Below are positions 23,039 to 55,300 of a stretch of 64,000 nucleotides of DNA, piece after piece. The first letter of the stretch is position 1. Each line of letters opens with the position of its first letter. A program made the translations under genes and the position numbers. Source of the stretch: Trueperaceae bacterium (lineage in GTDB: Bacteria > Deinococcota > Deinococci > Deinococcales > Trueperaceae); NCBI GenBank assembly GCA_013697735.1, contig JACCWH010000050.1, forward strand, positions 62 to 64,061, read 5' to 3'. The notes under the pieces were generated by a model. That model had not been told where the DNA came from, searched no databases, and saw nothing but the letters and a program-made list of their open reading frames with translations.

Positions 23039-23059
23039 GGCCGGACCCGCCCTGGACGG

Positions 23060-23077: not shown

Positions 23078-23082
23078 TCGTT

Positions 23083-24593: not shown

Positions 24594-24598
24594 ACGAC

Positions 24599-25803: not shown

Positions 25804-25847
25804 CGCCAAGTAGGTTTAGGGTATAGGATGGTCTCGGAGGAAACACC
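25786..25847 (+). promoter_or_regulatory. cassette promoter P4
   Basis: TTGACG 25800-25805, 18-nt spacer, TAGGAT 25824-25829, GGAGGAAACACC, ATG 25848. Confidence 0.7.
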
Positions 25848-37336: not shown

Positions 37337-37397
37337 GTCACGCGATACGGTTGACGTGGCCCCCCCCAAGGCGCTAGGCTCGACCCCGGAGGAACCA
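37337..37397 (+). promoter_or_regulatory. cassette promoter P5 (diverged copy)
   Basis: GTCACGCGATACGG left arm, TTGACG 37351-37356, 18-nt spacer (lacks TTTAGGGTA), TAGGCT 37375-37380, GGAGGAACCA, ATG 37398. Confidence 0.55.
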
Positions 37398-37445
37398 ATG
37401 CAAGAAGCCGCTACCGCCCACCCTGACCCTCGCGTGACGCCATGA
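37398..37445 (+). CDS. 15-codon leader ORF coupled to 37442..38428
   Basis: The cassette RBS (GGAGGAACCA) is positioned for ATG 37398. The ORF MQEAATAHPDPRVTP ends in a TGA that overlaps ATG 37442 (ATGA). Confidence 0.4.
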   Translation: MQEAATAHPDPRVTP

Positions 37446-38428
37446 TGCAGACGGCTGGACTATCGACCTACGGCGTCGCCAGCACCGACTGGCGCTCCCT
37501 ACAACGCGCCCTCAGCCGCTTTGGCGCCAAGAGGCTCCGCTCGACCGGCGGCCACCAACAGGTCGTCATGGAGTTGCGATCAACGCAAATCTACGCCGGG
37601 CCGCACGCAGGCAAGATCCCCCGCACCACCCCCGTCCACGTCAACAGCATCAAGCAGCTCCTCGGCCAAGTCGCCGCCGCGGGCATCCCGCCGATGCTCT
37701 TCGTCGCCGTCGTCGATAACGTCGGCCGCGTGCAATGGCGCCACCGCCCCCAAGCCCTCAAGCGCCTACTCACTATGCTGCGCAACGAAAAGCCCAACCT
37801 GAGCACGATCGAAGCCTGCCGCGATCTCATGTACCGCTTCACCAGCGAGGAGACGGGCGCCGAGATCGACGAGGTTCACGCCGTGGCGGACGACGAGCCC
37901 ACCCAAGCCGAACCTATCCAAGCCGAATCTACCCAGGACGAGCTTCCCATCGCCGAGACGCATCGGTACCGCATCAGCGAGATCGTCAGCGTCCTCGGCC
38001 TCGACTACGCGAATCCGCTGCGTCGCCGGGCAATCGGCTTCGTTGCCGCGCAGATCTCCGGGCACCACGCGGTCTCCGGCCGCCTCATCGACGAGGGCGC
38101 GATCGTGCTGAAGGCTCACGGCAAGGTGAACTTCTCCTACCTCAACACTCACGCCGTGCTGACGCTCGCCGAGGTGGTGCAGAACCACTTCGGCCTCGCC
38201 CCTGAAACGCGTGAGGAGCCCCAGGCGGCCCCAGAGCCCACACCAGCGCCCCCAGAGCCCCCCCAACCTCGGGACGAGCCCCAGGCGCCCCTGAGCGCCG
38301 CAGACGGCCTGCTCTTCATGTGCGCCCGCCTGGGCGTGAAGCCGACGTGGGACGGCTTCGGAATCAACGTCACGGCGACGATCGTCGACCTTGCGAACAC
38401 CTGGCGAGCGAATGGGGACCCGTGCTGA
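37442..38428 (+). CDS. hypothetical protein (328 aa), possible HicA-like N-terminal fold
   Basis: GC3-rich frame. The N-terminus (LQRALSRFGAKRLRSTGGHQQVV...IPRTTPVHVNSIKQLLGQVAAAGI) weakly resembles the HicA pattern. Acidic and Pro-rich linkers follow. Confidence 0.6.
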   Translation: MMQTAGLSTYGVASTDWRSLQRALSRFGAKRLRSTGGHQQVVMELRSTQIYAGPHAGKIPRTTPVHVNSIKQLLGQVAAAGIPPMLFVAVVDNVGRVQWRHRPQALKRLLTMLRNEKPNLSTIEACRDLMYRFTSEETGAEIDEVHAVADDEPTQAEPIQAESTQDELPIAETHRYRISEIVSVLGLDYANPLRRRAIGFVAAQISGHHAVSGRLIDEGAIVLKAHGKVNFSYLNTHAVLTLAEVVQNHFGLAPETREEPQAAPEPTPAPPEPPQPRDEPQAPLSAADGLLFMCARLGVKPTWDGFGINVTATIVDLANTWRANGDPC

Positions 38429-39660: not shown

Positions 39661-40525
39661 GAAAGCCAAGGCGCCCCTCACCGTGGCGGAGAAGCGCGTC
39701 GCGCGAGCCAAGCGCACCGCGCGAGAGAAGGCGGCGAAGCACCCGAAGGAGCACCCGAAGTGCGGAGCGAGGAAGCGCCAGGGCGAAGGAACCTGCAAGA
39801 TGCACGCGGGCTGGGGCACCGACCACGTCGGTTACGGCCGCTGCAAGCGGCATGGGGGCAGCACGATCACGCACCGCCGCGCCGCCGCCAGGCAGATCGA
39901 GGAGGAAGCCGCGCGGGACACGCCCTACGAGGAGCTGGTCAAGCGCACGGACCTCGCCGACCTGATCGTCGAGCTGAAGAGTCGCAGCGACATCGCCGAC
40001 ATCACCGAGGAGCTGGCGCTCGCCCGCGCGGTCACGATCAACTTCATCAACCGCGCCGACGAGATGGAGCACGCCCTCCTACGCTGGTCAGCGAGCTTCG
40101 ATCCCTCCTACCGAGAAGCGCAACAGCTTCACCTGCACGAGCTGATCGACGCCCGCGCGAGCGAAGAGTGGGAGCGCTACACCGAGCTGATGGAGCGCCA
40201 ACCCGACCCCCTCGCCTTCGTCGATCGACCGAAGAAGATCATCGACCTCGCCAACGCCGTGAAGATGCTCCGCGACGTCGTCGCGATGGCCGACCGAGTG
40301 CTGGAGCGACGCGACGCCGGAGCGATCCCCGTACGCGACCTAGAGCGCGCGTTGGGGGAGATCGTCGGTGTCACTGAAGGCGCCATACGAGAGAACATTG
40401 GGGACGTCGCTCTTCGCGCAGCTATCCTCGCCGCGATCGAGCACGGCTGGTCCTCCATCGTCCTTGGACGTCGCGACCCGGCTGACGAGCGCACTCAGGA
40501 CGTTCACAGCCGACTCGCCAACTAG
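39653..40525 (+). CDS. terS: putative small terminase subunit
   Basis: Lies directly upstream of the large terminase. Basic N-terminus with the Cys/His motif CGARKRQGEGTCKMHAGWGTDHVGYGRCKRHGG, then a helical domain. The call rests mainly on position. Confidence 0.5.
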   Translation: MKPKAKAPLTVAEKRVARAKRTAREKAAKHPKEHPKCGARKRQGEGTCKMHAGWGTDHVGYGRCKRHGGSTITHRRAAARQIEEEAARDTPYEELVKRTDLADLIVELKSRSDIADITEELALARAVTINFINRADEMEHALLRWSASFDPSYREAQQLHLHELIDARASEEWERYTELMERQPDPLAFVDRPKKIIDLANAVKMLRDVVAMADRVLERRDAGAIPVRDLERALGEIVGVTEGAIRENIGDVALRAAILAAIEHGWSSIVLGRRDPADERTQDVHSRLAN

Positions 40526-42056
40526 CCGCTCCTGGACCTCCGCCCAACGAGCGCGCCTCAAGAGCGGCGAGTGCTCCCTCGTCGAGTGGGCCAGCTACTA
40601 CCTCCCCGACCTCGCGTACCTGGAGCCGGGCGAGATCCACCGCCGCATCGTCGCCAGCTTCGGCAACGGCGACTCCCTACGCGCGGCCGCAATGGCGTCG
40701 CGCGGCTCGGCGAAGTCGACGCTCATCGGCGTAGCGAACACCCTCCGCCTCGCCGCGCTCGGGCGCAAGCGCTTCATCGTCTACGTCTCACCCGAAGCCG
40801 AAGCGCACCTCGCGCGGATCCTCAACCAAGTGGTCGAGAACGATCGACTGCTCTTCGACTACCCGCACCTCCGCCCCCAGGACCACCGCCGCCTGAAGAT
40901 CATGCGCAAGCGCAAGCGCAAAGAGACGCAAGCGGAGTTCACCACCGAGGGTGGCGTGACCTTCATCGCGAAGACGCCCGGATCCGCCATCCGCGGCATG
41001 GTCCGCGACGCGCACCGCCCCGATCACCTCGTCCTGGACGACATCGAGAATAAGGACACGGCCGCCAACCCCGACCGCACGCGCAAGCTCATCAAGTGGG
41101 TGAAGGAAGACCTCATGGGCCTGGCAGGCCCAGGCAACGAAGCGATGAGCATCCACGCGATCGGCACCCCCCTCGCGCACTTCACGATGATCGGCACCCT
41201 CGTCGACGAGTGGAGCGGCGGCGTGATCCCCATCCACGACGCCCTCACGGGCGAGAACCTGTGGCCCGAGGGGCTCCCCGACGAGGAGCTGGACCGCAGG
41301 CGTTACGGCTTCTGGGCCGTCTTCGACGTCGACCTCCTCCGCGAGCTGCGCTATGCGCACGACACGCCCAGCGAGCAACTACCCGAGGGCGTGAAGTTCG
41401 TGGCTGGCATGGGCGACCGCGCCTACCACCAGGAGTACGAGATGAAGCCGATCGAGGACGGCGCCGCGGACTTCCAGCGGCACTGGTTCGACGATCGCTT
41501 CATCGACGCCGACGACGTCAACCCCGCCGACTTCGTGCAAACCGTACGCTCCTGGGACTTCGCGGCCACCGAGAAGGCGGCGAAAAGCCCCGACCCCGAC
41601 TGGACGGCGTGCGTAAAGATGGGCGTTGACAAGCGTGGCAGAGTCGTTATCCTCCACGCGTGGCAGGATCGACTCACCCCGCACGCGGTCGAGCAACGGG
41701 CCCAATCCTTCGCGAGGGAGGACGGTCAACGCGTGCGCATCACGATCCCGCAGGACCCCGGGCAGGCGGGCAAATCGCAAGTGTTCAACTGGGTCGTGAA
41801 GGTACTCCGCGGCTACCACGCGACCGCCGTCATACCCAGCGGCGACAAGCGCGTGCGCTGGTCGGGGCTCTCCGCGCAGGCCGAAGTGGGTAACGTCTGG
41901 ATCGTCCGCGCCCCCTGGAACAGCACATGGCTCGATCACATGTGCCAACTCCCCTTCGGCGCGCATGACGACATCGGCGATGCATCCGCGGACGCGTTCA
42001 ACTTCCTCAACCCCGGCGAGCCCATCTGGAGCGCCATGGAGGCCTTCCCCTCATGA
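40368..42056 (+). CDS. terL: large terminase subunit
   Basis: Walker A is ASRGSAKST and Walker B is HLVLDDIE. C-terminal nuclease motifs are WDFAAT...DWTACV and GAHDDIGDASADAF. GTG 40368 has GGGGGAG 7 nt upstream but overlaps terS by 158 nt, so the start is uncertain (TTG 40464 is an alternative). Confidence 0.85.
   Translation: MSLKAPYERTLGTSLFAQLSSPRSSTAGPPSSLDVATRLTSALRTFTADSPTSRSWTSAQRARLKSGECSLVEWASYYLPDLAYLEPGEIHRRIVASFGNGDSLRAAAMASRGSAKSTLIGVANTLRLAALGRKRFIVYVSPEAEAHLARILNQVVENDRLLFDYPHLRPQDHRRLKIMRKRKRKETQAEFTTEGGVTFIAKTPGSAIRGMVRDAHRPDHLVLDDIENKDTAANPDRTRKLIKWVKEDLMGLAGPGNEAMSIHAIGTPLAHFTMIGTLVDEWSGGVIPIHDALTGENLWPEGLPDEELDRRRYGFWAVFDVDLLRELRYAHDTPSEQLPEGVKFVAGMGDRAYHQEYEMKPIEDGAADFQRHWFDDRFIDADDVNPADFVQTVRSWDFAATEKAAKSPDPDWTACVKMGVDKRGRVVILHAWQDRLTPHAVEQRAQSFAREDGQRVRITIPQDPGQAGKSQVFNWVVKVLRGYHATAVIPSGDKRVRWSGLSAQAEVGNVWIVRAPWNSTWLDHMCQLPFGAHDDIGDASADAFNFLNPGEPIWSAMEAFPS
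41626..41655 (+). promoter_or_regulatory. promoter candidate inside terL (TATCCTCC class)
   Basis: TTGACA 41626-41631, 16-nt spacer, TATCCTCC 41648-41655. TATCCTCCACGCG is shared with the copy at 59365. Confidence 0.35.
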
Positions 42057-43666
42057 CCCGACGCTCCGGTGCGCCCGAGATCGTTCGCAAGATCCGCAAG
42101 AGCCACCACGGCGAGATCGTCATGCTCTCGACGCTAGAGCAAGCCTTCGTCGGCTGGGAGGACGAGAAGTCGACGCCCGAAAGCAGCCCCCACCACCCCG
42201 CGCGAGTGCTCTCAGCGAGCGAGATCGGCCAAGTCGACTTCCTCCGCCACTGGAAACCGCGGAACTTCCTCGCGAAGGTGATCGAGGAGCCCGTCGGTTT
42301 CCTCGGCCTCGCCCGCCCCCGCATCAACGTCGTGCGCCTACAGCCCGACGGCACACGCGTGCAACTCGACCCCGACCTCGGCGAAGACAAGGCGCTACAG
42401 ACGAAGGTCGAGGACTTCTACCAACGCAAGATCCGCCCCCGCCAAGCCGACATCGTGCTGTGGCAAGGCTGGTACGGCCGCAGCTTCATCAAAGTCGCGT
42501 ACGACCCCGGGGGATTCCCCTACCTCAACGCGGACGGTGAGGTCGCAGAGTTCGAGCGAACGCCCGGGATCCACGTGATCCCCTACCCCCGCTTCGAGGG
42601 CGGCACCGAACGCGCCGAAGCGTGGCATGACGGCGACGACCCCGACCTCATCACCGCCGCAGTCGTGTACTGGAACGAACGCGACGTCGAGGACCCCGAC
42701 GACACCGTCGAGACGCGGCACGCGCAACTCCTCTACCCCGACCGGATCGAGTGGCTCGTGCACACCGGCTCCGGCTGGGTGATCGACCCCACCCGCGGCG
42801 TGAGCGGCACCGGCATCGACCCGCACACGTGGGGCGTCGTGCCGCTCGTCGAGTGCTGGAACAACGGCAAGCCCGACGTGATCGACGCGCTCGACATCCA
42901 AGCGACGATCAACAAGGACGTGTACGACATGAACGCGCACGGCAACACCGTCGCCTTCCCCCAGCGTTACCGCAAGGGTTTGATCCCCGCGGGCGGCTGG
43001 CACCGCAATCCGATCACCGGCCAAGTCGAGGACGTCCGTCCACTCAAGAGCGGTCCCCACATCGTCTGGGACGTGCCTGACGGCGGCGACGTCGGGCAAC
43101 TCCCGAGCGACGCGGGCGAGTTCCTACTCGCGAAGTACAACGGCGACATCGAGGACCTCGCGACCCTCACGCGCTCCGTGGCGATCTCGAAGATGAAGCA
43201 ATCGAACGATACGAGCGGCGAGAGCAAGCACATGGACACCGCGCAGCTCCTCGGCCCACGCCTACAAGGCAAAGCCGAGGCCCTCGGGGCCGCCATCCGC
43301 AGCGTCTACCAGACCGCCTTCGCGATGGCGCGCAACGATAGGAACGTCGCCGCCATCCTCGACATGGAGGGCTTCGAGCAGCTCGACGTCGAGGTGATCT
43401 TCGAGCTGGACATCGACCGCGACAAGACCCGCGAAGCGCAGATGGATCAACTCGACCGCAACAGCGGCAACCTGAGCCTGCAGACGTACCTGATCCGCAG
43501 GGGCTTCACCGAGAGCGAAGCGAGCAAGGAGGTCGAGCGGATTCGCGACGAGCAGGCAGCCGCGCAAGAGATCAGCGAGGACGACGAAGCGCGCGCCGTC
43601 ACGGCCGCGAAGCGCGGCGCCAACGGTGCCATCGACAAGAGGGAGCCGAATGCCGAAGCTCGTTGA
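42053..43666 (+). CDS. portal protein
   Basis: 537 aa. ATGA overlap with terL. Size and position fit a portal. Acidic C-terminus. Confidence 0.75.
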   Translation: MTRRSGAPEIVRKIRKSHHGEIVMLSTLEQAFVGWEDEKSTPESSPHHPARVLSASEIGQVDFLRHWKPRNFLAKVIEEPVGFLGLARPRINVVRLQPDGTRVQLDPDLGEDKALQTKVEDFYQRKIRPRQADIVLWQGWYGRSFIKVAYDPGGFPYLNADGEVAEFERTPGIHVIPYPRFEGGTERAEAWHDGDDPDLITAAVVYWNERDVEDPDDTVETRHAQLLYPDRIEWLVHTGSGWVIDPTRGVSGTGIDPHTWGVVPLVECWNNGKPDVIDALDIQATINKDVYDMNAHGNTVAFPQRYRKGLIPAGGWHRNPITGQVEDVRPLKSGPHIVWDVPDGGDVGQLPSDAGEFLLAKYNGDIEDLATLTRSVAISKMKQSNDTSGESKHMDTAQLLGPRLQGKAEALGAAIRSVYQTAFAMARNDRNVAAILDMEGFEQLDVEVIFELDIDRDKTREAQMDQLDRNSGNLSLQTYLIRRGFTESEASKEVERIRDEQAAAQEISEDDEARAVTAAKRGANGAIDKREPNAEAR

Positions 43667-44051
43667 CGACCTCCACTACGCCGCCGCCCTCACGCTCACT
43701 CTCAAGATCCACGAGGAAGAGACGCACGCCTTCAAGGCTCGCCTCGCCGACCGCTCGGTCGCCCTCGTGTACGACGCCATGAGCGAGATGGGCGCCGAGT
43801 TCAACGAGGCGACGGTGCGCCGTCACCTCGCGAGGATGCCCGACGTGTACGTCGAGGAGTCGCTGCGCTACATCCGCCGCGTGCTCGTGCGCGTGGGCGA
43901 GGTCGAGTTGGCGAAGAAGCTCGAAGAGGCCGAGCGCGTGGTGGGGCTCGATGATCTGCCCGAGGCGTTCCGCGATGGGTACGACGAGATGTTGCGTGGT
44001 GGGCTGCTCGGTTCGCAAGAGGGCCCGGAGCCGCGAGTCGTCACGCAATAG
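43650..44051 (+). CDS. hypothetical protein
   Basis: 133 aa from ATG 43650 (GGGAG upstream); GTG 43626 is an alternative. Its last codons (VVTQ*) lie inside the left arm of cassette P6. Confidence 0.55.
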   Translation: MPKLVDDLHYAAALTLTLKIHEEETHAFKARLADRSVALVYDAMSEMGAEFNEATVRRHLARMPDVYVEESLRYIRRVLVRVGEVELAKKLEEAERVVGLDDLPEAFRDGYDEMLRGGLLGSQEGPEPRVVTQ

Positions 44052-44101
44052 GGTTGACATGCCGAGGGTTTAGGGTATAGGATGATCTCGGAGGAAACAC
44101 C
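44040..44101 (+). promoter_or_regulatory. cassette promoter P6
   Basis: TTGACA 44054-44059, 18-nt spacer, TAGGAT 44078-44083, GGAGGAAACACC, ATG 44102. Confidence 0.7.
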
Positions 44102-44335
44102 ATGCCACGCACCGAGACCGCCAACACCGACCGCCCCACCCTCGAAGCCCTCAAGGCCCGCATCGTCGCCCTCGGCGAAACCCCCAGCGGATGCTGGGAA
44201 GACGACCACCACGTCTACGCCTTCTCCGCTCGCGGCCTCGGCTCCGGCACGTACGGCCACCCCGCGCTCACGCTCCACTGGCAAGCAGCCGGGCGCTACT
44301 ACATCGAAACGATCACCCCCCGGAAGGGGCGGTGA
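44102..44335 (+). CDS. hypothetical early protein
   Basis: 77 aa, behind cassette promoter P6. Confidence 0.6.
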   Translation: MPRTETANTDRPTLEALKARIVALGETPSGCWEDDHHVYAFSARGLGSGTYGHPALTLHWQAAGRYYIETITPRKGR

Positions 44336-44631
44336 TCGCGGTGCTCCGCATGGCCATCGCCCGCATCGACATGCACCGAACCTTCGTCTTCGAGGTCGCC
44401 GACATCCGGGCGGCCTCACGCCACTACGCCGAACTGCGCGACTTCGGCGACTACACACCGAGCCAGATGGGCGACGGGATCATCTCCGATTCCGAGGGTG
44501 AGACGATCGCGGTCGTGACCTACAACGCTCGCGTCTGGGCGTACGACGCCGACGACGTCGAACGGCGCACCGCGCTGCTCTTCGATCCCGCCGCCCCCCT
44601 CACGCCGAAACCCGGCGAGGGGGGCTTCTGA
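44332..44631 (+). CDS. hypothetical protein
   Basis: 99 aa. GTGA overlap with the upstream gene. ATG 44350 is an alternative start. Confidence 0.5.
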   Translation: MIAVLRMAIARIDMHRTFVFEVADIRAASRHYAELRDFGDYTPSQMGDGIISDSEGETIAVVTYNARVWAYDADDVERRTALLFDPAAPLTPKPGEGGF

Positions 44632-44680
44632 TGGCTCTGTACGAATCCGCTGCAGTGACCGCTCGACCACAGGAGGATCC

Positions 44681-45430
44681 ATGCAAGACACCGCTACCAC
44701 CGCTACCATCGACTTCGACGCCCTCGACGCCATGTTCGACGACGGCATGGAGTACGCCCTAGCCGCTCACGATCGCCCCGACGCCGAGGAGTGGCCGAGC
44801 GCCCCCGGCTGGTCGAGCGAGGGCTTCGTGATCGACTCGCTCGACCTGGCCTCCTGGGCCAGCCGCCGGATCGACACCGCCGAGGAGATGAAGCTCGAAC
44901 AGACCGAGTGGCGCGCCCGCGAGATCGCCCGCATCGAGCACGCCTTCACGCGCAACGTCGCGCGCCACGCGGACACCATCGCCTTCCTCACGTCGAGCCT
45001 CGAAGTCTGGCACCGAGCACGCTACGCGCTCGACAAGAAGAAGACGATCGACCTCCCGGGTGGGCGCTTGCAGATCCGCAAGTCCGTGCAGACGATCCAG
45101 ATCCTCGACGAGGTCGCCGCGATCGCGGCCCTGAAAGCGGACGAGGCGACGCGCCCCATCGTGCGGGTCGAAGAGTCGATCATCATGAGCGCGCTGAAGG
45201 CGGCCCTGGCGCAGGGCGAGGCGGTCCTGGGCGAGGAGGGTGCCGAGAGCGAGACCCCGGGCATGGTGGCCCACCTGACCACCACCGGCGAGCGCGTCGA
45301 CTGGGCGATCTGGACGCCGCCGGGTGACTCGGTGAAGTTCGCGAGTGCCAGCGCGAAGGCCGCCAAGTCGAGCGCGAAGACCGCCAAGAAGGCCGCCAAG
45401 TCGGCGGGGGCCGACGATGAAGAGGCGTAG
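44681..45430 (+). CDS. Mu Gam-like host-nuclease inhibitor protein
   Basis: GGAGGA lies 3 nt upstream of the ATG. A coiled N-terminus (IDSLDLASWASRRIDTAEEMKLEQTEWRAREIARIEH...) is followed by KKTIDLPGGRLQIRK, typical of the Mu Gam-like family. Lys/Ala-rich tail. Confidence 0.6.
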   Translation: MQDTATTATIDFDALDAMFDDGMEYALAAHDRPDAEEWPSAPGWSSEGFVIDSLDLASWASRRIDTAEEMKLEQTEWRAREIARIEHAFTRNVARHADTIAFLTSSLEVWHRARYALDKKKTIDLPGGRLQIRKSVQTIQILDEVAAIAALKADEATRPIVRVEESIIMSALKAALAQGEAVLGEEGAESETPGMVAHLTTTGERVDWAIWTPPGDSVKFASASAKAAKSSAKTAKKAAKSAGADDEEA

Positions 45431-45572
45431 CCGCCTCCGGCGTAAGGCGACCTCCCTCCACGTCTACGTGCGTCCCTGGACGCACTCCGAGTGGGCGGGC
45501 GCGATTGTCGTCGCCCTCACCGCGCTGGGCGCGGTCGGCTACCTGATCTGGCATGTGGCGCGAAGCGGTTGA
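45417..45572 (+). CDS. small membrane protein (51 aa)
   Basis: Basic N-terminus followed by a TM helix (AGAIVVALTALGAVGYLIW). Its stop TGA lies inside the -35 TTGACA of cassette P7. Confidence 0.45.
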   Translation: MKRRSRLRRKATSLHVYVRPWTHSEWAGAIVVALTALGAVGYLIWHVARSG

Positions 45573-45616
45573 CACTCGCGAGGTTTAGGGTATAGGATGC
45601 GGGCGGAGGAAACACC
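45555..45616 (+). promoter_or_regulatory. cassette promoter P7
   Basis: TTGACA 45569-45574, 18-nt spacer, TAGGAT 45593-45598, GGAGGAAACACC, ATG 45617. Confidence 0.7.
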
Positions 45617-46168
45617 ATGACGAACGCTGCGCGCTACATCACCGGAACCGAGCAAGCGAAGATGATCCGCACCAGCCTGCGCGAGGCCTTCCCGGCCACC
45701 ACCTTCACCGTGCGCCAGTCGCGCGGCTCGGCGATCACCGTCGCCTGGGCCGACGGCCCGACCGTGAAGCAGGTCGACGCGCTCGTGCAGCGCTTCGCGG
45801 GCGGCGGCTTCGAGGCCTCCCTGGACCTCGGCTACAGCGTCCAGAGCTACGTCAAGGGCGAGCCCGTCCTCTTCGGCCAGCACTTCATCTTCGCCAACCG
45901 GCGCCTCTCCCTCGCCTTCGCATCGCGCTACCTCGCCCGCGCGAGCGCCTACTACGGTTTCAACGCCGACGCCTTCGCGCTCCGCGGTGACGGTGAGCGC
46001 GGCTACCGGATCGACGCGTCCGACACGAGGCTCGTCGGTTGGGATGCAATCGCGCTCGTCGCCAGGAAGGTCGACGCCTACTCGCACGAGGCCGCCAAGG
46101 ACTCTCCCACGGCTCGCCAGACCGGCACGCACGCGGAGGTCCCCTCGTACATCCAACGCGGCGAGTAG
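45617..46168 (+). CDS. LPD29-like protein (stand-alone large-polyvalent-protein-associated domain)
   Basis: TEQAKMIRTSLREAFPATTFTVRQSRGSAITVAWADGPTVKQVDALVQRF matches my memory of the LPD29 family pattern (TAKliR..Lk..FP..kFsVrs....sI.V.WtDGPt). Behind cassette promoter P7. Confidence 0.55.
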   Translation: MTNAARYITGTEQAKMIRTSLREAFPATTFTVRQSRGSAITVAWADGPTVKQVDALVQRFAGGGFEASLDLGYSVQSYVKGEPVLFGQHFIFANRRLSLAFASRYLARASAYYGFNADAFALRGDGERGYRIDASDTRLVGWDAIALVARKVDAYSHEAAKDSPTARQTGTHAEVPSYIQRGE

Positions 46169-46186
46169 GATCACCGCGGCTCGACC

Positions 46187-46206
46187 GGGCGCCCCACGGG
46201 GCGCCC
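46187..46206 (+). terminator. hairpin
   Basis: GGGCGCCCC AC GGGGCGCCC, between the stop at 46168 and cassette P8. Confidence 0.45.
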
Positions 46207-46213
46207 TACTCGT

Positions 46214-46275
46214 GTGCCGCGATACGGTTGACACGTGCGCAGTTTAGGGTATAGGATGATCTCGGAGGAAACACC
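46214..46275 (+). promoter_or_regulatory. cassette promoter P8
   Basis: TTGACA 46228-46233, 18-nt spacer, TAGGAT 46252-46257, GGAGGAAACACC, ATG 46276. Confidence 0.7.
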
Positions 46276-47085
46276 ATGACCCAGAACTACAACACCATCG
46301 CCCGCGTCCGCACCGGCTACCCCACCCGCGCCCCAGAGCCCAAGGACATCCTCGTGCGCATGAACGTCGACGGCACCGTCCACGAGGCCGGGCTCCTCGC
46401 GAGCCTGAAGCAGTATGGACTCCTCGGGGCCGACACCCGCGCGATCTACCTGGAGTCGTACGTCGACGGCGGCGCCCGCGACCACTTCGCGATCATGGAT
46501 GGCGGCAAGACGATCGGCTCGCTGCAGCTCCTCGGCGACGACGACAACACCCTCCACAATCGCGCCGCCGAGGGCGCCTGGCGGAACGTGATGGACGAGA
46601 AGGGCGACTCGGTCTACGAGGTCTGGTACACCACCGCCCCCGCCGCCTACGACTACAGCTACGTCCGCGCGAGCGACGCGACGCGCTTCGAGGCCACGAA
46701 AGAGGGCGCCGTGCTGCGCCGCGTCGAGATCCCCCGGGCCTCGGTGGCCTACCAGACCGCCCGCTACATGTCGGGGCTGCACATCGCCATCAACGAGGAG
46801 CAGGCCGAGCACGAGGCGCAACAGCGTTACGCCCTCGTGCGCTACGCTCGCGCCCACGTCGCGGGCGCCTACGAGGCCGGGATCTGGCTGGCGATCGTCG
46901 GCGATCGCCTCGTCGCCGATGTGCTGCGCCAGGCGCGGATCGACTCGGGCTGGAGACCCGGCGACGACCACCCAGCGCTCGCTACGATCGCCGTGGCGCT
47001 CCTCGACGGCTCCACGTCGCCCCTGGCGCGCCAGGTCGACCGCCTGGCGCTCCTGGGGGCTCTGACGCGCCACCTGAGCCGCTGA
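46276..47085 (+). CDS. hypothetical early protein
   Basis: 269 aa, behind cassette promoter P8. GC3-rich frame. Confidence 0.65.
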   Translation: MTQNYNTIARVRTGYPTRAPEPKDILVRMNVDGTVHEAGLLASLKQYGLLGADTRAIYLESYVDGGARDHFAIMDGGKTIGSLQLLGDDDNTLHNRAAEGAWRNVMDEKGDSVYEVWYTTAPAAYDYSYVRASDATRFEATKEGAVLRRVEIPRASVAYQTARYMSGLHIAINEEQAEHEAQQRYALVRYARAHVAGAYEAGIWLAIVGDRLVADVLRQARIDSGWRPGDDHPALATIAVALLDGSTSPLARQVDRLALLGALTRHLSR

Positions 47086-47106
47086 TCTCCCCCCACTCCC
47101 CCGGTC

Positions 47107-47169
47107 GTCCCGCAAAGCGGTTGACACCGGGGGAGTTTAGGGTATAGGCTTGCAATCGGAGGAAACACC
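47107..47169 (+). promoter_or_regulatory. cassette promoter P9
   Basis: TTGACA 47121-47126, 18-nt spacer, TAGGCT 47145-47150, GGAGGAAACACC, ATG 47170. Confidence 0.65.
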
Positions 47170-47979
47170 ATGACGAACACCGACAAAATCTTCGCCCCCA
47201 TCACCCTACCGATCACCCTCTCGGTCGGCCGAGCGCGCGCCTCCGCCATCGCCTGCTCCCTCGCCACCTACTCCGAAACCCTCACCGAGGCGGACGAGGC
47301 CTACCCGGTGCTCGCCATCGAGGAAGTGTTCCGCACGCTCTCCTGGCGCCTCCGCTCCCCCGCGGAGGTCTACCTGACCGGCCCCGAAGCCACCCTGATC
47401 GAGAAGGCCGTCGCCCACATCGTCTTCACCGTCGGCGGCACCATCGACGACACGCTGGTCCTGCGCGACCTCGGCAACGCCCACGAGGAGGCCAAAGCCG
47501 CGCAGGCGTCGACCTCGCTCGTCGCCCAGTTCAAGAGGGCACGCGACGACGCCCGCACGGCGTTCGGCGCCTCACGCGCTGGGCGCGCTGGGCGCGACGC
47601 CGCGGTTGCCAACTCCCGCCTCTTCCACGGCGCCACCGTCGACGACGCCACCACCGCCGTGATCGGGGCCATGAGCGCCGAAGACGACCGCGTCGGCCCC
47701 GGCGGCAACCGTTCCCACCACGTCTTGCACCGCCTCATACCCCTCATGTCGATCCTCTCAACCGTGCGCGACCTCGACTCGGACCTCTTCGTCGACGACA
47801 TTCGCGCCGCCCACCTCGTCCACTGGCACGGCAGCCTGTTTCAGCCCGAACACCTCGACGCCGCCCGCGCGATCGTCGCGAACGCGCGAGCGGACCAGGG
47901 CGCCGCCATCCTCTACGTCTACCGCGACGCGACCGGCGCCGCCTGGCGCTGCACGCACGAGCCCGTCACCACCCCCTGA
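47170..47979 (+). CDS. hypothetical early protein
   Basis: 269 aa, behind cassette promoter P9. Followed by a hairpin. Confidence 0.65.
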   Translation: MTNTDKIFAPITLPITLSVGRARASAIACSLATYSETLTEADEAYPVLAIEEVFRTLSWRLRSPAEVYLTGPEATLIEKAVAHIVFTVGGTIDDTLVLRDLGNAHEEAKAAQASTSLVAQFKRARDDARTAFGASRAGRAGRDAAVANSRLFHGATVDDATTAVIGAMSAEDDRVGPGGNRSHHVLHRLIPLMSILSTVRDLDSDLFVDDIRAAHLVHWHGSLFQPEHLDAARAIVANARADQGAAILYVYRDATGAAWRCTHEPVTTP

Positions 47980-47986
47980 CCCCCTC

Positions 47987-48004
47987 GGGCGCCCTCGGGC
48001 GCCC
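47987..48004 (+). terminator. hairpin
   Basis: GGGCGCC CTCG GGCGCCC after the stop at 47979. Confidence 0.45.
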
Positions 48005-48038
48005 CACCGCACTCCCCGTGCTGACGCCCTCAGCCTCG

Positions 48039-48067
48039 TTGACGATCCCGCCGCAGGCGCGTACCAT
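48039..48067 (+). promoter_or_regulatory. sigma-70-type promoter candidate (non-cassette)
   Basis: TTGACG 48039-48044, 17-nt spacer, TACCAT 48062-48067. It would give a ~125-nt leader upstream of ATG 48198. Confidence 0.4.
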
Positions 48068-48096
48068 CGACTCGGTCCTCCGAGACCCGTCGTTTG

Positions 48097-48177
48097 GTAG
48101 CGGCGTTACATACCGGATCAGGCCCCTCGTTTCCTCCAGAAGTCGGGGGCCTTATCCGTGGCACCGTAACGCGCTAC
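48097..48177 (+). promoter_or_regulatory. long imperfect hairpin in the 5' leader, with an anti-RBS sequence in the loop
   Basis: Nested stems are GTAGCG-GCGTTAC/GTAACGC-GCTAC, CGGAT/ATCCG and AGGCCCC/GGGGCCT. The apical loop carries TCCTCC (48132-48137), complementary to the RBS GGAGGA (48188-48193). Confidence 0.4.
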
Positions 48178-48197
48178 ACTCGCCGCCGGAGGATCGC

Positions 48198-48374
48198 ATG
48201 ACGAAGACACAAGCAGAACGAATCGAAGCCGATCAGGCGCGACGTGACGCCTACATCCAAGCCGCCCTCACTGGCCTCTTGGCCGGGAGGGAGGGCGATC
48301 TCCTCCTCGTCGACATCGGCGGGGACGCCGTCCAGTACGCCGAAGCCACCATGAAGGCCGCGGGCGAGTCCTGA
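48198..48374 (+). CDS. hypothetical small protein
   Basis: 58 aa from ATG 48198, with GGAGGA 4 nt upstream. Trimmed from track ORF 48018..48374. Confidence 0.5.
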   Translation: MTKTQAERIEADQARRDAYIQAALTGLLAGREGDLLLVDIGGDAVQYAEATMKAAGES

Positions 48375-49165
48375 TGGCGCACCAGCGCGGGCTCGCCTTC
48401 TTCGACGCTGGCCGCCGCGAGGATCACTTCCTCGACGCCAACTGGCCTGACAGGCCAATCGTCGCCTTCGACCTGGAGACCACCGGCGTCGACCCGCACG
48501 AAGCGCGCATCGTCACCTGGGCGTGGGCGGTCGTCCACCCCGACGGCGACGCTAACGCCGAGAGCGGCCTGGTGAAACCCGACGGCTTCGAGATCCCCGA
48601 GGGCGCCACCGCCGTGCACGGCATCAGCACCGAGGTGGCCCTCGCCGAGGGAAAGAGCCTCGCGCAGGCCCTCACCATCCTGAGCGCGAGGATCCACAAT
48701 GCCGCCATCACCGGAAAGCCGCTAGCGATCTTCAACGCGCCGTACGACATCACCGTCTTCGAGGCCGAACTGGCCCGCGTCGCCGGAGTGAGCGCGGGCG
48801 AGGTCGACCACACTGGCGACTACCCGCCGATCATCGACCCCCTCGTGCTCGACCGGCGCATCGAGAAGTACCGGAAGGGCAAGCGGCAGCTCGGCATCCT
48901 CGCCCCCACCTACGGCGTCGAGCTGGCCCCGGAAGAGGCGCACTCCGCCACCGCGGACGCCATCGCCGCCGGTCGCCTCGCGCTGGCGATGGCCGCGCAG
49001 CACCCGGATGCTCTGCGGATTCCAGCACTGCACCTGCACGAGCGCCAGGTGGCCTGGGCCGAAACGCAGACGACCGACTTCGAGGCCTACCTGCGCAGAT
49101 CGAAGAGCGACCCCACGATCACCCTCGGCCGCGGGTGGCCGCGCCAGCACCCGGTGAGCACGTGA
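48374..49165 (+). CDS. DEDDh 3'-5' exonuclease (DnaQ/epsilon-like)
   Basis: ExoI is FDLETTG, ExoII is FNAPYD and ExoIII is HSATADA. Confidence 0.85.
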   Translation: MAHQRGLAFFDAGRREDHFLDANWPDRPIVAFDLETTGVDPHEARIVTWAWAVVHPDGDANAESGLVKPDGFEIPEGATAVHGISTEVALAEGKSLAQALTILSARIHNAAITGKPLAIFNAPYDITVFEAELARVAGVSAGEVDHTGDYPPIIDPLVLDRRIEKYRKGKRQLGILAPTYGVELAPEEAHSATADAIAAGRLALAMAAQHPDALRIPALHLHERQVAWAETQTTDFEAYLRRSKSDPTITLGRGWPRQHPVST

Positions 49166-49308
49166 GCGCCTTCTGGCCCGCCCTCCTCGGCGGCTTCCTC
49201 GGGGCCACCCTCGGGCTCACCGTGATCATCTACCTCGCCGATCTGATGGACGCGTTCCGCCGAGGGCGACACAGCGCTCGCGTGCGCCGGGGTGGCTTGA
49301 AACCGTAG
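49162..49308 (+). CDS. small membrane protein (48 aa)
   Basis: GTGA overlap with the exonuclease gene. TM helix FWPALLGGFLGATLGLTVIIYL followed by a basic tail. Too short to appear in the ORF track. Confidence 0.4.
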   Translation: MSAFWPALLGGFLGATLGLTVIIYLADLMDAFRRGRHSARVRRGGLKP

Positions 49309-49361
49309 GGAGAGCGAGGCACCTCGCGCAACGCCCCGCCCAGGGCGTACCCTTCGGCCCG

Positions 49362-52300
49362 ATGGCCGACCCGACGAAGATCGACGACGAAATCGGCAGC
49401 GCCTTCCATGCCCTCTTCGGGTCAGGCGTTCGCCCCGCCAACCTCGCTGCCGCCGAAACGCACCTGGCCCGCCGCTTCACGGACGGGCCAGAGCTGTCGA
49501 CGCGCCTGTGGGGCGCCGGGCAGAGCGAGCGCGAGTCGATCATCGACTACCTACGCAAGGAGTACACGCTCGGGAGCGGCTTCGGCGAGACGCCCGGCTA
49601 CCCCTCCAACCGCATCCTCGACAACCTCCGCACGTGGTACACCGACGGCCCCTCCTCCGGCTTGCGTGGCGACCCCACGTACGTCGCGCGCCGCATCGCC
49701 GTGACCGAGTCGGCCTTCTTCACGCAAGCGCTCGATAACGCCGTTGACGAGGAGCTAGAGGCCGCCGGAATGATCGACGGCTACGAGATCCTCCTCGCGC
49801 CCGAACGCGACGATTGGGATTGCGAGTGCCCGGGGCACGCTGACGGCGGGCCCTACCCGACCCTGCTCGACACGCCCGAGCCCCCCTTCCACCCGTTCTG
49901 CGCGTGCAGGCGCCGCCCGATCTTCCTCGACGAACCCAAGCGCAAGAAGCAAGCCGATCGGCGTCGCGCCCTCACCGACTACGCCAGGGGCGTCGGCGTC
50001 GACGTGGCCGCCACCATGCTCGACCGGGAGATCGCCGACCCCAACGATCACCCCGTCCTCACGCTCTTCAAGCAGTACCTCGTCGACTACCTCGCCGGTG
50101 GAACCAAAGCGCACCTGCTCGGCAGCTCGCCACGCTGGGGGCGCCTGATCGGGCGCACCGCCCTCAACTTCACGCTGCGGCACGGCCGCGATTACGTGAT
50201 CAAGACCGCCGTCGACGCCGCCGCGTTGATCCAGAACACCCCCCGCGGCGTCCTCCTGCAAGCCATGACGCACCACCTCGCGCGCCACTACTACCTCGTG
50301 GGCCGCGAACGCCTCCGAACGATGTTCGCCCCCCGGCCGTACGGCGGCCGCGTTGGTGGCCCCCCAGGCGCGGGTAGCAGGCGAGGCCCCCCCGCGGCTC
50401 TCGTCGCGGACACGCGAGCAGTGAGCACCCTCACGCCCGAGATCATCGAGAACGCGGTCGAGTTGGAACGCGCGATGGTGCTCGCGCGCCAAGCGGGCGC
50501 GAAGCTCGGTCCGCCCCTCTCGCCCGCCGAGTTCGACGACAAGATCCGCACGCTCCTCAAGGACGCGATGGTGGGCGGTCGCCCCGTCACCGGCCACGGT
50601 GTCTTCCGGCCGAAGCCGGGAGAGAAGTGGACCGGCAACGAGATCCTCACGCAAGTCTTCGGTGACGGCCTACCGACCACGATCTCCGCCGAGCTGACGA
50701 CCTGGCAGGCGGGCGGGCAGATCGCTCGGCCTCGGCCGAACCTGATCGGCACCGTCACCCCCGACGGCCGCGCGCTCGCCCCCGGGGCCAGGCACGAGGT
50801 CGAGTACCGCGTCTGGCCCGTGAGCGCCATCGACGCCGCCACCCTCGGTGGGGCTCCGGGGGAAGTCTTCCTCCCCCCCGGCGCGACACTGCGCCCGTTC
50901 GCGGTCCAGGAGGAACGCGGGCGCTGGGTGGTCGACTTCCGGGAGATGCCATCGTGGTCGAAGCCCCTCGCGTACGCGGACGACGAGATCACCGCCTGGG
51001 CCAACCTCCCCGTCGGCGTACCCCTCGAACCGAGCGCGGCGCAGGACCTCGTCGACGCCTGGCGTTCACTCTTCCCCCTCCCACCGATGCAAGCCGTCGA
51101 GCACATGCTCTTCGGTCTCCCCGTGAACCTGCAACGCGTCGGCATCACCGGCCGCGCGAACACCATCAACCTCTCGATCACCACCGACGCCTTCACCGCC
51201 ACGCGCACCTTCACCCTGCGCGACGACGGGGTCCGCGTGAGCCACGACACCCTCCGAGTGATTCCCGACCGCCAGGGCGAGGGGCTCGCGCGATCGTTCC
51301 TCGCGAACAGCGTCTACCTGTACGAGGCGCTCGGCTTCAAGGCGATCGAGACGAACGCCTCCGCCCGCGGCGACGACGGCGGTGCTTACACCTGGGCGCG
51401 CTTCGGCTTCACGCCGCAGATCCCGGATTGGCAGGCCGTTCGTGATCGCAACGTCAGGGTGTGGCTCGAACAGAACCGCATCAACCTGACCGTCGCCGAG
51501 GTCAACCTGATCGAGGCCGCGCTCGCCAATCGCCACCCGCGAGCGCTCTGGGCGATCGCCGACCTACCCATCGGCCGCGAAGCGCTCCTCGGCGGCGCGG
51601 GCGTGGGATGGCGCGGGGTGCTCGACCTCACGGATCTGGAGGCGATGCAGCGCTTCAACGCCTACACGCGCCGCTTGCCCCTGGTGATGGAGCGCCAACA
51701 GATCGACCTATCCGAGGTCACGATCAGAAGCTACGCCCCCCCGCCGGATCCGCCACCCGCCATCACGCACGAGGACCAAGTCCGTTACCAGCTCGTCGAA
51801 AGCGAGTTCGCCGGGCCGAACGTGCGCAATGGCGACATCGACGTCAACGCCCAGCGTTGGGACGTCTTCGCGGGCGCCGATACGCCAGCCTCCCTCGTCG
51901 AGCGGCTCCGCAGCGCGCTCGCCGACATCAACCCGAACGTCTACGCCGGGCGCGACCTCGACACCGCGATCATCTCCTTCAGCGAGACCGGCCGCGCCCT
52001 CTACATGGACTACTACTTCCGGGTGGAGGGCGACGCCTTCGGCACCACGATCCAGCTCCGGCATGAGGGCGGGCGGTCGTACGTCGACAAGGTCCGCTTC
52101 TCGAACCCCGAGCGGATCCAGGAGTCCATCGACCTCCTGGGCGTGATCGAACGCGTCTTCCGCGACGAGCTTGGCTTCAACGGGATCAACGTTGACGTCG
52201 ACAGCATCGAGAGGCTCCGCGGCGGGCTGGGCATGGGCCTGCAGGTGCCCGCGTACCAGCGTATCCGGTTGGATATCCACCTGCGCGAAACGATCACCGA

Positions 52301-55300
52301 GGGGCTCGCGGGGAGCCCACGCAACGCGCAACTCCTCGAAGCCTACCTAAGTGACTCGGACGACGTCGGGACCTACCTGCCCATCGCCGCCGCGCTCGAA
52401 CCAACTTGGGCGATCACGCCGAGCGCCGCCTTTGCCCTGCAGACCACACCCCTCTCCCTCATCCTCCCGGTGCGGTCGTCGCCTCGGCGGCGCCTCTACG
52501 ACGCGCTCTCCAGCTCGGGGGGAGGGCCGATCATTCGCGGCCTCCTCGATCGAGCCGAAGAGATCCGCATCGAGGCCATGGCGATCCCCCAGGGCGCCGA
52601 CGTCCAGGGCGACATCACCTTCCCCGACGCCGCGCCCGCGGCCGCGCCGCTGCCCGATCGGAGCGGCTGGCCGACTGAGGCGCGCATCACCCAAATGCGC
52701 AGCGAATGGGGTGACGCCCCGACGACCGCCCAGGAGTTCCAGGACGTCTTCGGGCAGACGATGGATGATGTGCAGGTCGCCGTCTGGAATCAGCGCATCA
52801 ACATCCGACCCGAGCAGTTCGTCGAGTACCTCTACCAGTTCGCGCCGCCCGAAATGGTCGGCGCCTACACCTGGAACTGGCGCATCGGGCACCAGGGGCA
52901 CGTCGAGTTGGATCTGAGGACGACGGCGGGCGTGACCGGCGTCAGCATGGAGATGCGGCGCACCTTCGACTTCTCCCGGCACGGCGATCACAGCGTCTAC
53001 CACGGCTACTACCGGGTCAGCCGCGACTCGGCGAGCCCCCTGCGTGGCGTCGCCCGCGCCGTCTTCTCGGGCTTCTGGGACATCTACGACCACATGGGCA
53101 TCGCGCGAGTCGGCGTCTCCGCCTCCCTCTCTCGCGGCGGTTACGTCTGGGCGCGCTTCGGCTTCCTCCCCGACGGCAACATCTCCGACCTGGGCGACCG
53201 CATGGCGCAGCACCTGGGCTTCGACGCCGTCGCCGCAATCGCGCAGCACGTCGATCCGAACGAGATCGCCGCCACCCTCCGCGGCGCGGCGATCGCGGAG
53301 TACGCCGACGAGCTGGTCGACCTCTACGAGAGCGTGAGCGGCCCCGGCCTCTTCCAGGACCAACTGAGCGTCCTGGTCCCCACCGACCCCGACCGCGTCG
53401 CGGAGATCTTCCGGGAGGTCGATCTCGCCGTCACCCAAGCCGACATCGACGACGCCGTCGACGACGCCGCGAACGCGCTCATGGGCGCTCACAACTCGCC
53501 GATCGAGGCGCTCACCGCCGACTTCCTCGACCAGGAGGGCATCACCGGCTACCCCGACGAGCCGCGCATGCTCTGGGACATCGCCGACCACCTCCAGGGC
53601 GCCGACGTCCTCATGGGCCAAAGCTGGTCGGGCACGTTCGACATGAACGATCCCGACCAGCTCGACCGCTTCAACGGGTACGTGCGGCGCGGTCAGCCGT
53701 GGACGGACCTCCTCGACTACACCGAACAGATCACCGGCTCGCGCCACATGACCTTCTCCCTCAACCGCGCCAAGGTCGCCCGCGCACTCGCGCAACAGAC
53801 GCCCGCCGTTCCCGACGCCCAACTCCCCGTGTGGGAGCCGGACCCCCTCCTCCAGCGCGGGCTCATGCCGAATGTCGGTGTCGCCCCGGCGGGCGTCGAC
53901 CAGGCCTCCTTCGAGTTCATCGCTCGGCACGTCTGGCAGACCACGCCCACGCTCCAGGGCGGTTCCGCGGCCACACACACCGTGGGCAGGCTACGCGAGC
54001 GCGCGGCACACACGATGGAGGGGATGGTGGCGACCCTGAATGTCCCGCCCGCCGCCATCGAGCGCATGATCCTCCCCCCGAAGAGCTGGCCCGCCACGTT
54101 CCAGCTCGCCGCCGAGCCGGTCCACGCGGGAACGGTCGGGAGTCGCGGCGTCCAGTACGAGTTCGAGCTGAGCGCCGCCACGCCGAACCCCGAGTTTGAC
54201 CCCGCCGCCACGCCGAACGCTGATACCAACCCCGAACGGCTCTCCATGCACGTGCTCCTGACGAGCACGCTCGGAACGGGCGAGACGCTCCCGACGACGG
54301 TGATCGACTTCGGCGCGAGCGCATACTTGCGCGTCACGCCCGCGCAGATGATCGAGTCGATCGGCGAGGCCTACCGCGTGGTCCGCGCCGTGACCGCCGA
54401 AGCGAGCAACGTCCAGATCTCGTTCGACACGCTCTCCTTCAGCCACCTCCTCACCCTCGACCTCGCGGATCCCGCGCGGATCCGCGGCATGTCCGAGCTG
54501 GGCTCGATCTTCGCGTGGGCGCCGCACGACCCCAACATGGTGAGCGCGTTGCGCTCGGGGCTCACCAACGCCCACTACTTCCTGCAGGGCCCGACCGGGA
54601 ACGCTGGCATCGTCGACGACGCCACCTTGCGCCGCGTCGAGGCGCACGCGCTCGGGAGCGACATGGGTCGCTGGGTGATGATCGACGACCTCGCCCGGCA
54701 CGGCGAGTACCGCGCCCTCGGTGAGATCGTCATGCAGGGAACCTGGGGCGGTCGGGTGACGCTCGATGTCGTGCGCGAGCGCGCCACGCACCTGATCCCA
54801 ATGCGCCCCCTCTCCCAGCCGATCGTGCGCCTCCCCGAGCGCGTGCTCACCACGGCTGATCCCGAAGCCCAACGCGCTTGGGAGGCGGCGATCGGCCCCG
54901 CCTTCCCAACGCGCTCGGGCGGCGACATGAGCCTCCTGCAACAGCGCGAATCCGGCACCATCGACCTGTGGCTCTCGCAATCACAACGCGACGTGTGGCT
55001 CGCCGATCCCGGCCTCGCCGACGTGCAACGCCTGGCGGTGCTCGACATGATCGCAGGCCCCCGCGCCCCCATGGGGCAACCTCACGCGGATGTCGCGGCG
55101 ACCTTCTACCACCTCCTCAACACTCCCGTGGCGCGGCACCTGAGCCCCGCCGAGCTGTGGCGCGGGTCGGGATTGCGCGATGTTCACCTCGACACCCTCG
55201 CCAACTCCTTCTCGGTCATGCTCTCGCCGCCCGGCCACCAGCTCGGCCGCATCGGCGTCCAGATCCAAGTGCCGCACGCCATCGACGAGCCGGTCCAGAG

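Follow-up and report, generated by a model that had tools for sequence, protein, structure and literature searches.

What occupies the interval between the portal gene and the next large gene in the head module of an uncultured tailed phage, and how stable is it among related phages? The question is raised by a 64,000-nucleotide stretch of DNA (hereafter the window), nearly all of a 64,085-bp contig (68.3% GC) that is grouped in a 237-contig metagenome-assembled genome (MAG; 69.8% GC) of a Trueperaceae bacterium (Deinococcota). The MAG is placed there by RpoB, whose C-terminal 400 residues are 96% identical to those of a named Trueperaceae MAG. In the window, 5.7 kb holding one core gene (g1) and ten accessory genes (g2 to g11) separate the portal gene from a giant gene with a MuF-like N-terminus. 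An earlier note on this DNA described the interval as an early-type accessory island, inserted between genes that are normally adjacent. Its inventory holds: the portal and MuF-type genes are 5.7 kb apart, four promoter cassettes and a fifth candidate lie between them, and the Gam-like, LPD29-like and DEDDh exonuclease genes, those for two 269-residue proteins and those for small membrane proteins are all present. The flanks of the interval are conserved, its cargo is variable, consensus units of promoter and ribosome-binding site are repeated within it, breakpoints between related phages fall at these units, and the giant gene has a promoter of a different sort. We consider it likely that the interval is a lineage-wide hypervariable accessory slot, i.e., a moron array of PeSL-like cassettes placed between the late portal-g1 unit and a separately promoted giant gene; that it is a variable hotspot with autonomous promoters, we hold with high confidence.

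If the island were a recent, one-off insertion, relatives would be expected to bring its two flanks together. With the portal as query, a database of 5.8 billion proteins yielded 14 relatives, all metagenomic and 44-81% identical, and the DNA around eight of them (L009, L011, L013, L015, L016, L017, L099 and L100) was compared with the window. All eight share one layout, in which TerL (56-72% identity) is followed by the portal (49-61%), a g1 homolog and a run of small genes. The giant or MuF-type gene is seen after the island in four of the eight, the other four loci ending within the island, and in none does g1 adjoin the giant gene. The portal stop and the start of the giant gene are 5.7 kb apart in the window; for L009, L013 and L016 the corresponding distances are 8.8, 8.3 and 4.6 kb, and for L015 the value exceeds 9 kb. 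Islands that are visible in full span 4.6-8.8 kb and hold 7-20 genes beyond g1. A recent one-off insertion was therefore rejected on synteny: because all eight relatives carry the island, the slot is ancestral, at least to the depth of 49% portal identity. What the earlier note took for the normal state, with portal next to MuF, occurs in none of the eight relatives, so that of its phrase "accessory island inserted" the first part stands (only two of the ten genes have a homolog in the relatives' islands) and the last does not.

The gene content of the slot differs from phage to phage. Clustering sorts the 98 island genes of the nine phages into 61 families; 39 of these have a single member, and none is present in more than five phages. 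The earlier note's proposal would have suffered had the same island recurred in relatives as a conserved core with late expression, and no such conserved core is seen. The two window genes with a partner in any relative's island encode the Gam-like protein (one of eight relatives) and the exonuclease (two of eight, in one of them outside the island). The commonest families are ArdC-like proteins (ArdcN plus an M78 peptidase), found in the islands of L015, L016, L017, L099 and L100, and a protein of 312-375 residues and unknown function, also from five relatives; SprT-like genes are present in two.

By contrast with this cargo, the left flank is constant, and it includes g1. This gene lacks a promoter, overlaps the portal stop and is coupled in translation to the portal gene, and in all eight relatives a homolog (120-142 residues, 38-50% identity) lies directly 3' of the portal, abutting or overlapping its stop and likewise promoterless. 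An AF2 model built from a seven-sequence alignment (pLDDT 84) is a long helical hairpin, for which fold searches of PDB and BFVD gave no match at E<=0.001. From its conservation and placement, g1 is best classed as a core gene of the late portal unit and not as variable cargo. Since it is kept in all eight relatives, the variable island proper is 44052-49308; of the 43650-49308 that the earlier note had delimited, the remainder (43650-44051) is core.

On the right flank, the first 400 residues of the giant protein are 43-54% identical in L009, L013 and L016, and its position downstream of the portal is kept. Residues 25-200 match PHROG families for minor head and head-morphogenesis proteins only (phrog_115, E 8e-7; phrog_1657, E 7e-6; phrog_2841, E 1e-4), and residues 1-250 have no Pfam match even at E<=1, including to Phage_Mu_F; the MuF label, which the earlier note had taken for granted, is thus plausible on sequence grounds but weaker than assumed. 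In the window, as in L009, L013 and L016, the gene has neither a Shine-Dalgarno (SD) sequence nor a TTGACA box. A TAnnnT hexamer precedes its GTG by 6 nt in L009 (TAGGCT, 20320-20345), L013 (TAAGCT, 19828-19853) and L016 (TATCCT, 9393-9418), as TACCCT precedes the ATG by 8 nt in the window, and we infer that in these four phages the giant gene has a conserved promoter of the leaderless type. Promoters for leaderless mRNAs are common in Deinococcus and Actinobacteria. The TATCCT motif of L016 also occurs in the window, as TATCCTCC at 930, 26434, 41648 and 59365. The MuF-type protein that follows the island measures 745 residues in L009, 3090 in the window, 4007 in L013 and 4037 in L016, and is as plastic as the adjoining island.

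The promoters within the island are of another kind. Each of the four cassettes has the form TTGACA-N18-TAGGAT (TAGGCT in the last) ... GGAGGAAACACCATG, in which 7-8 nt separate the -10 box from an invariant GGAGGAAACACC-ATG. A 28-nt core of the unit, TTGAC-N10-TTTAGGGTATAGG, is present in six exact copies in the contig, against 0.00 expected from shuffles, and nowhere else in the MAG. A looser pattern recovers nine units in the contig, in agreement with the P1-P9 numbering of the earlier note, four of them in the island and five outside it. The stop codon of g5 is the TGA within the TTGACA of P7. Because the island units have full -35 and -10 boxes and an SD sequence, and the giant gene is of the leaderless type and lacks a -35 box, the island and its structural neighbor have promoters of different kinds; the claim that the units are independently promoted is borne out to the extent that consensus promoters of their own are predicted from the sequence.

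Each relative repeats a cassette of its own, comprising GGTTGACA, 17-19 nt, TAnnnT or TATAAA, GGAGG and a start codon; the repeated unit is about 50-65 nt long, and each phage reuses its own version several times in the slot. The first cassette directly follows g1 in seven of the eight relatives, with one gene between them in L099. Within 10 kb of the portal, the cassettes inside and outside the island number four and none in L009, three and none in L013, and two and none in L016; L015 has four and L100 two, and the sole cassette outside an island in that range is in L017, after a RusA gene. Inverted repeats within the cassettes span the spacer and -10 box in L009 and L013 and flank the -35 box in L015. 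An imperfect inverted repeat, GTCAC-N7/8-GTTGAC, lies upstream of and overlaps the -35 box in the window (44039-44059 and other cassettes), in L009 (11985-12002), in L013 and in L016, and is thus kept across diverged phages; it may be an operator through which a phage regulator would shut the cassettes off. In L016, four tandem copies of GGGCGTACAG (5240-5285) lie directly upstream of the first island promoter.

The last island unit, comprising g9, g10 and g11, is arranged differently. The gap between g8 and g9 consists of 219 non-coding bases that hold a hairpin, a promoter with a TACCAT -10 box and a leader of about 130 nt; both the TACCAT box and a CCGCAGGC motif upstream of it can be aligned to L009 and L013. 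None of 200 shuffles was as stable as this leader, and in the predicted fold its 5' GGUCCUCCG pairs with the SD sequence of g9, GGAGGA, which suggests that RNA structure could control translation of g9-g10-g11. Structure is less evident in the leaders of the two relatives (z -2.45 and -0.84). The GC hairpin after g6, which has no U-tract, is possibly a terminator or attenuator.

Where closely related islands differ, they differ by whole genes. Between L009 and L013, the closest pair, colinear blocks are broken by gene-sized insertions and replacements that end at cassettes or at hairpin-SD repeats; for example, 17448-17683 of L009 and 17635-17898 of L013 are unrelated, although both stand behind a cassette that is 98% identical. 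The second of these repeats, an intergenic, promoterless GGGCGCGGCGGCGCCC hairpin followed by AGGAGGAAGCCATG, is found in the relatives and marks L009/L013 breakpoints. Two placements indicate that genes move between the slot and other cassette-bearing regions. The 312-375-residue family, which is an island family in five relatives, is found in the window outside the island, behind the diverged cassette at 37.4 kb (direct matches in L009, L013, L015 and L016), and a homolog of the exonuclease lies upstream of the terminase, outside the island, in L099. Given this mobility, and given that unknown genes at 22.4-26.2 kb and at 37.4 kb stand behind the same cassette, the earlier note went too far in naming the island the most plausible location for counter-defense functions in the window.

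Table 1. Positions of the features discussed, in window coordinates unless a relative is named.
Feature	Position	Strand	Remarks
Portal gene (left flank)	42053-43666	+	537 residues; PF05133 SPP1_portal 36.4 bits (cut-off 25.5); phrog_104 E 4e-15
g1	43650-44051	+	133 residues, all-helical; no family match
Cassette P6	44054-44104	+	TTGACA-N18-TAGGAT, then GGAGGAAACACC-ATG
g2	44102-44335	+	77 residues; no family match
g3	44332-44631	+	99 residues; GTGA-coupled to g2; no family match
g4	44681-45430	+	249 residues; predicted Mu Gam-like DNA-end-binding protein
g5	45417-45572	+	51 residues; single-pass membrane protein (19-residue Kyte-Doolittle peak 1.99); no family match
Cassette P7	45569-45619	+	Same cassette family
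g6	45617-46168	+	183 residues; solo LPD29-domain protein
GC hairpin after g6	46187-46206	+	GGGCGCCCC..GGGGCGCCC; fold of 46166-46230 -34.3 kcal/mol, z -2.65
Cassette P8	46228-46278	+	Same cassette family
g7	46276-47085	+	269-residue ORFan
Cassette P9	47121-47172	+	-10 box TAGGCT
g8	47170-47979	+	269-residue ORFan
GC hairpin after g8	47987-48004	+	Fold of 47977-48040 z -2.12; no U-tract; equivalent hairpin in L009 and L013
Fifth island promoter candidate	48039-48067	+	TTGACG-17-TACCAT
Structured leader, ~130 nt	48068-48200	+	-63.8 kcal/mol, z -4.36
g9	48198-48374	+	58 residues; phrog_30098 (function unknown), E 1e-5
g10	48374-49165	+	263 residues; predicted full-length DnaQ/epsilon-type DEDDh 3'-5' exonuclease
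g11	49162-49308	+	48 residues; single-pass membrane protein (19-residue peak 2.01); GTGA-coupled to g10
TACCCT -10 hexamer	49348-49353	+	8 nt before the giant-gene ATG; right boundary of the island
Giant gene (right flank)	49362-58634	+	3090 residues; MuF-like N-terminus
RepB-primase-like gene	14358-15338		
Replication initiator	19680-20750		
DnaB	20747-22066		
Four further cassettes	22425-25850	+	Starts 22425, 23097, 24613, 25800; just downstream of the replication genes
Diverged cassette and 328-residue gene	37351-38428	+	TTGACG..TAGGCT..GGAGGAACCAATG; gene 37442-38428, function unknown
TerL	40368-42056		
GGGCGCGGCGGCGCCC/AGGAGGAAGCCATG element	L009 16648-16690, 18332-18377; L013 16823-16864, 18535-18577; L011 13549-13609		

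What the slot carries in the window is in part recognizable. The product of g4 belongs by sequence to the Mu Gam family, known for binding double-strand DNA ends and inhibiting exonucleases (PF07352; 48.5 bits against a gathering threshold of 28.3, E 1e-12, profile positions 4-136 of 149; phrog_2205, E 2e-19) and is about 30% identical to the Gam protein in the island of L017. It is some 75 residues longer than Mu Gam, and its C-terminus (45340-45427) is a Lys/Ala-rich tail, SAKAAKSSAKTAKKAAKSAG, that is reminiscent of the basic tails found on mycobacterial Ku and histone-like proteins. The product of g6 belongs to PF18847 (LPD29; 65.4 bits against a cut-off of 27, E 8e-18, profile positions 2-92 of 93; phrog_15549). 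The g10 product passes the cut-off of the "epsilon subunit" subfamily NF005927 (224.8 bits against 186), matches PF00929 (RNase_T, E 6e-11) and phrog_192, retains the catalytic residues D33, E35, D125, H190 and D195, and is 41% identical to the exonuclease that ends the L009 island. In PDB, the Gam, LPD29 and exonuclease sequences had chance-level matches or none. Among the PADLOC models of defense systems nothing specific was found, only generic DEDDh models matching g10, and the ArdC-N and metallopeptidase pair of the relatives is absent from the window island.

The two 269-residue proteins are ORFans. Among the 5.8 billion proteins each matches only itself. For g7 there is no Pfam, PHROG, NCBIfam or PADLOC match, PDB gives chance-level matches only, and a single-sequence AF2 model is poor (pLDDT 43). 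For g8 there is no family or PDB match and one weak match (E 2e-5, 106 residues) among 1.84 billion representatives. That the two might be paralogs, as their equal length could suggest, was rejected (BLASTP E 6).

Taken over the lineage, the slot is probably themed on the protection of DNA ends and on anti-restriction, as far as family matches tell, and the anti-nuclease flavor that the earlier note remarked on recurs beyond the window, in the Gam, ArdC-like and SprT-like genes of the relatives. A mechanism can be proposed along the following lines. The cassettes match the consensus of the housekeeping sigma factor, such that no phage factor would be needed and host RNA polymerase should transcribe g2-g5, g6, g7 and g8 upon entry of the DNA. 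For the fifth unit, g9-g11, transcription would start at the TACCAT promoter and pass through a leader in which the ribosome site is masked. The Gam end-binder, LPD29 protein, epsilon-type exonuclease, two membrane peptides and ORFans would then shield the phage genome, both as it enters and as it replicates, from host nucleases and restriction, or process it, a role that ArdC-like and SprT-like genes would fill in relatives. Finally, the repeated cassettes would act as patches of homology at which genes are swapped between phages and between the slot and other cassette-bearing regions. As regards the timing, the promoter sequences incline us toward early expression, and the chances that at least one cargo gene is a true counter-defense factor appear to us about even.

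Several observations weigh against this scheme. On the + strand from 39 to 50 kb there is no canonical intrinsic terminator, so late transcripts that begin in the portal unit are likely to run on into the island, and the island genes could be expressed late as well. L009, L013 and L015 have a clear PeSL-type stem-loop in their cassettes, and the window has one after g6 and one after g8, but not every window cassette contains one, and the fold of the P6 cassette is no better than those of shuffles. The host assignment comes from binning and GC content only; searches for a host link through spacers or shared DNA gave just three 23-nt chance-level matches, none of them in a repeat array, and because there is no spacer or prophage link, the phrase "host sigma consensus" carries an assumption. 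As regards function, no window gene matches a proven anti-defense family, six of the ten cargo genes are without a family (g11 was not scanned against family libraries), and two more belong to families of unknown function (LPD29 and phrog_30098). The DnaQ protein is of the cellular type and Gam also serves phage replication, and some of the cargo may belong to ordinary DNA metabolism; the g10 exonuclease, for one, fits DNA metabolism as well as counter-defense.

This last point can be extended to the view that the cargo is largely displaced equipment for replication and recombination, with Gam guarding rolling-circle ends and the epsilon-like exonuclease proofreading with the host polymerase. 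Mu Gam is required for normal Mu growth, g10 passes a curated cut-off for epsilon subunits, and among the open reading frames (ORFs) scanned there are an initiator, DnaB and a primase-like protein but no polymerase. However, the exonuclease occurs in two and Gam in one of the eight relatives, a patchiness unlike that of core replication functions, and nothing ties the remaining eight genes to replication, which makes this account a distinctly unlikely one. The missing terminator bears on a different proposal, in which the island proteins are late, virion-packaged solo effectors that are made with the MuF polyvalent protein, ejected with the DNA and active before transcription. The island does immediately precede the MuF-type giant gene, the g6 product is a solo version of LPD29, whose definition comes from polyvalent proteins, and capsid deployment has been proposed for solo domains encoded among late structural genes (Iyer et al., PMC5512222). 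If packaging were the purpose, it would be difficult to see why the units have full -35 and -10 consensus boxes with a strong SD sequence beside leaderless, -35-less structural neighbors, and why the same cassette drives genes beside the replication module. Moreover, island genes are found far from head genes in other relatives, and no sequence exchange between island genes and giant proteins was detected; we regard packaging as unlikely.

Constitutive promoters within a late operon would also suit classical, prophage-expressed morons that serve lysogenic conversion or superinfection exclusion, e.g., through the two small membrane proteins. The promoter-gene(-hairpin) architecture is that of the moron definition and of the ant moron of P22 (PMC2629481), and an operator could lie in the conserved GTCAC-N7/8-GTTGAC repeat over the -35 box. 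Signs of lysogeny are nevertheless lacking: a scan that covered ten larger ORFs beyond the head module, the three large minus-strand ones among them, detected no integrase or recombinase family, host flanks are absent from the contig, no relative of the portal occurs in 128 genomes of the host family, a portal profile found nothing in about 185,000 reference species genomes, and PADLOC finds no defense-system protein beyond the generic DEDDh model. We consider prophage expression very unlikely.

The contig itself, which carries neither host flanks nor a terminal repeat, reads as a circularly permuted, near-complete tailed-phage genome of 64 kb. The same portal is found on a 64,145-bp contig of another assembly, and the genome is therefore probably complete; the top database match to the portal, 81% identical, sits on a contig of 1.7 kb. 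Beyond the giant gene, more + strand ORFs without a Pfam match run off the end of the contig, and these are presumably head and tail genes by position, including an ORF of 1906 residues at 1424-7144. Megablast of 43000-50000 against phage records found no relative, neither the portal (tblastn) nor the MuF-like N-terminus has a match in 50,697 phage records, the portal has none in IMG/VR, and all TerL matches in those 50,697 records are below 30% identity; by these sequence searches, there appears to be no cultured phage close to the lineage. An Rfam scan of the whole window found no family. ARAGORN made a single tRNA call, a 90-nt tRNA-Leu(GAG) at 27873-27962 on the - strand, antisense to a 688-residue ORF (27297-29363); it lies inside a coding region and is probably spurious.

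The slot provides a compact, bounded list of candidate early or anti-defense genes, i.e., 61 families from nine phages, mostly ORFans and each with a unit of promoter and ribosome-binding site; for Trueperaceae, the host group with which the phage of the window is binned, hardly any phages are known. It would be tempting to go further and view the ~60-nt cassettes as a recombinase-free, integron-like exchange system that circulates ORFan counter-defense genes (g2, g3, g7 and g8) among phages and among two or three slots per genome, with the slot serving also as a nursery for solo domains that join the giant ejected protein by fusion or are set free from it; we offer this as a speculation, and one that is improbable as it stands. 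Accessory hotspots are already known as a phenomenon, and what is new here is the unstudied lineage, the site between portal and MuF, and the unusual uniformity of the cassettes.

The moron concept, which is reportedly that of Juhala and Hendrix, calls for an independently transcribed unit lying between genes that are adjacent in relatives, one that morphogenesis does not require and that is often expressed from the prophage. Promoters of the units' own are predicted here, but all eight relatives carry the island and only single genes come and go. A nearer parallel in placement is the "ant moron" of P22-like phages, a fixed moron site within the morphogenetic cluster (PMC2629481). Both are non-morphogenetic, variable regions at a fixed position in that cluster and are independently promoted (by prediction, in our case); unlike the P22 site, the slot is missing from no relative, consists of four to five tandem units with a reused promoter instead of one regulated module, and shows no sign of lysogeny.

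Two further precedents concern the cargo. Solo polyvalent-protein domains encoded beside structural genes have been proposed to be early-invasion factors delivered by the capsid (Iyer et al. 2017, PMC5512222), and LPD29 in the window, together with the ArdC-N/peptidase and SprT-like proteins of relatives, is likewise encoded beside a MuF-type polyvalent gene. In contrast to that proposal, host-type promoters here point to early synthesis and not to packaging, and the cargo consists mostly of ORFans and not of LPD families. Phage diversity hotspots with partial anti-defense themes have been catalogued by guilt-by-location (iLund4u, bioRxiv 10.1101/2024.10.15.618418). In these hotspots, as in the slot, the flanks are conserved and the cargo varies, most proteins are unannotated and the functional theme is partial; this lineage differs in being absent from the phage collections searched here, and its theme comes from few Pfam hits.

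The PeSL cassettes of the T4-type phages RB49 and phi1 consist of a stop codon, a sigma-70 early promoter, a stem-loop, an SD sequence and a start codon, flank ORFans in hyperplastic regions and mediate modular shuffling (Arbiol et al. 2010, PMC2839356). In the window, too, a short unit with an upstream stop, a promoter of the sigma-70 (housekeeping) consensus, an SD sequence and a start codon is repeated many times and concentrated upstream of ORFans in a plastic region, and gene-sized differences between close relatives are bounded by repeats. The present units differ in that they have no AT-rich upstream element and do not each contain a stem-loop, and in that promoter, terminator and mini-circle activities belong to the PeSL side of the comparison, our cassettes being known from their sequence. 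They also belong to an uncultured 64-kb lineage of 68% GC, in which the array lies inside the head module, and would thereby extend the PeSL and moron principle to a very different group of phages and to such a site. By analogy, then, PeSL comes nearest to the slot in design and behavior, and for placement the nearest counterpart is the fixed ant moron site of P22-like phages.

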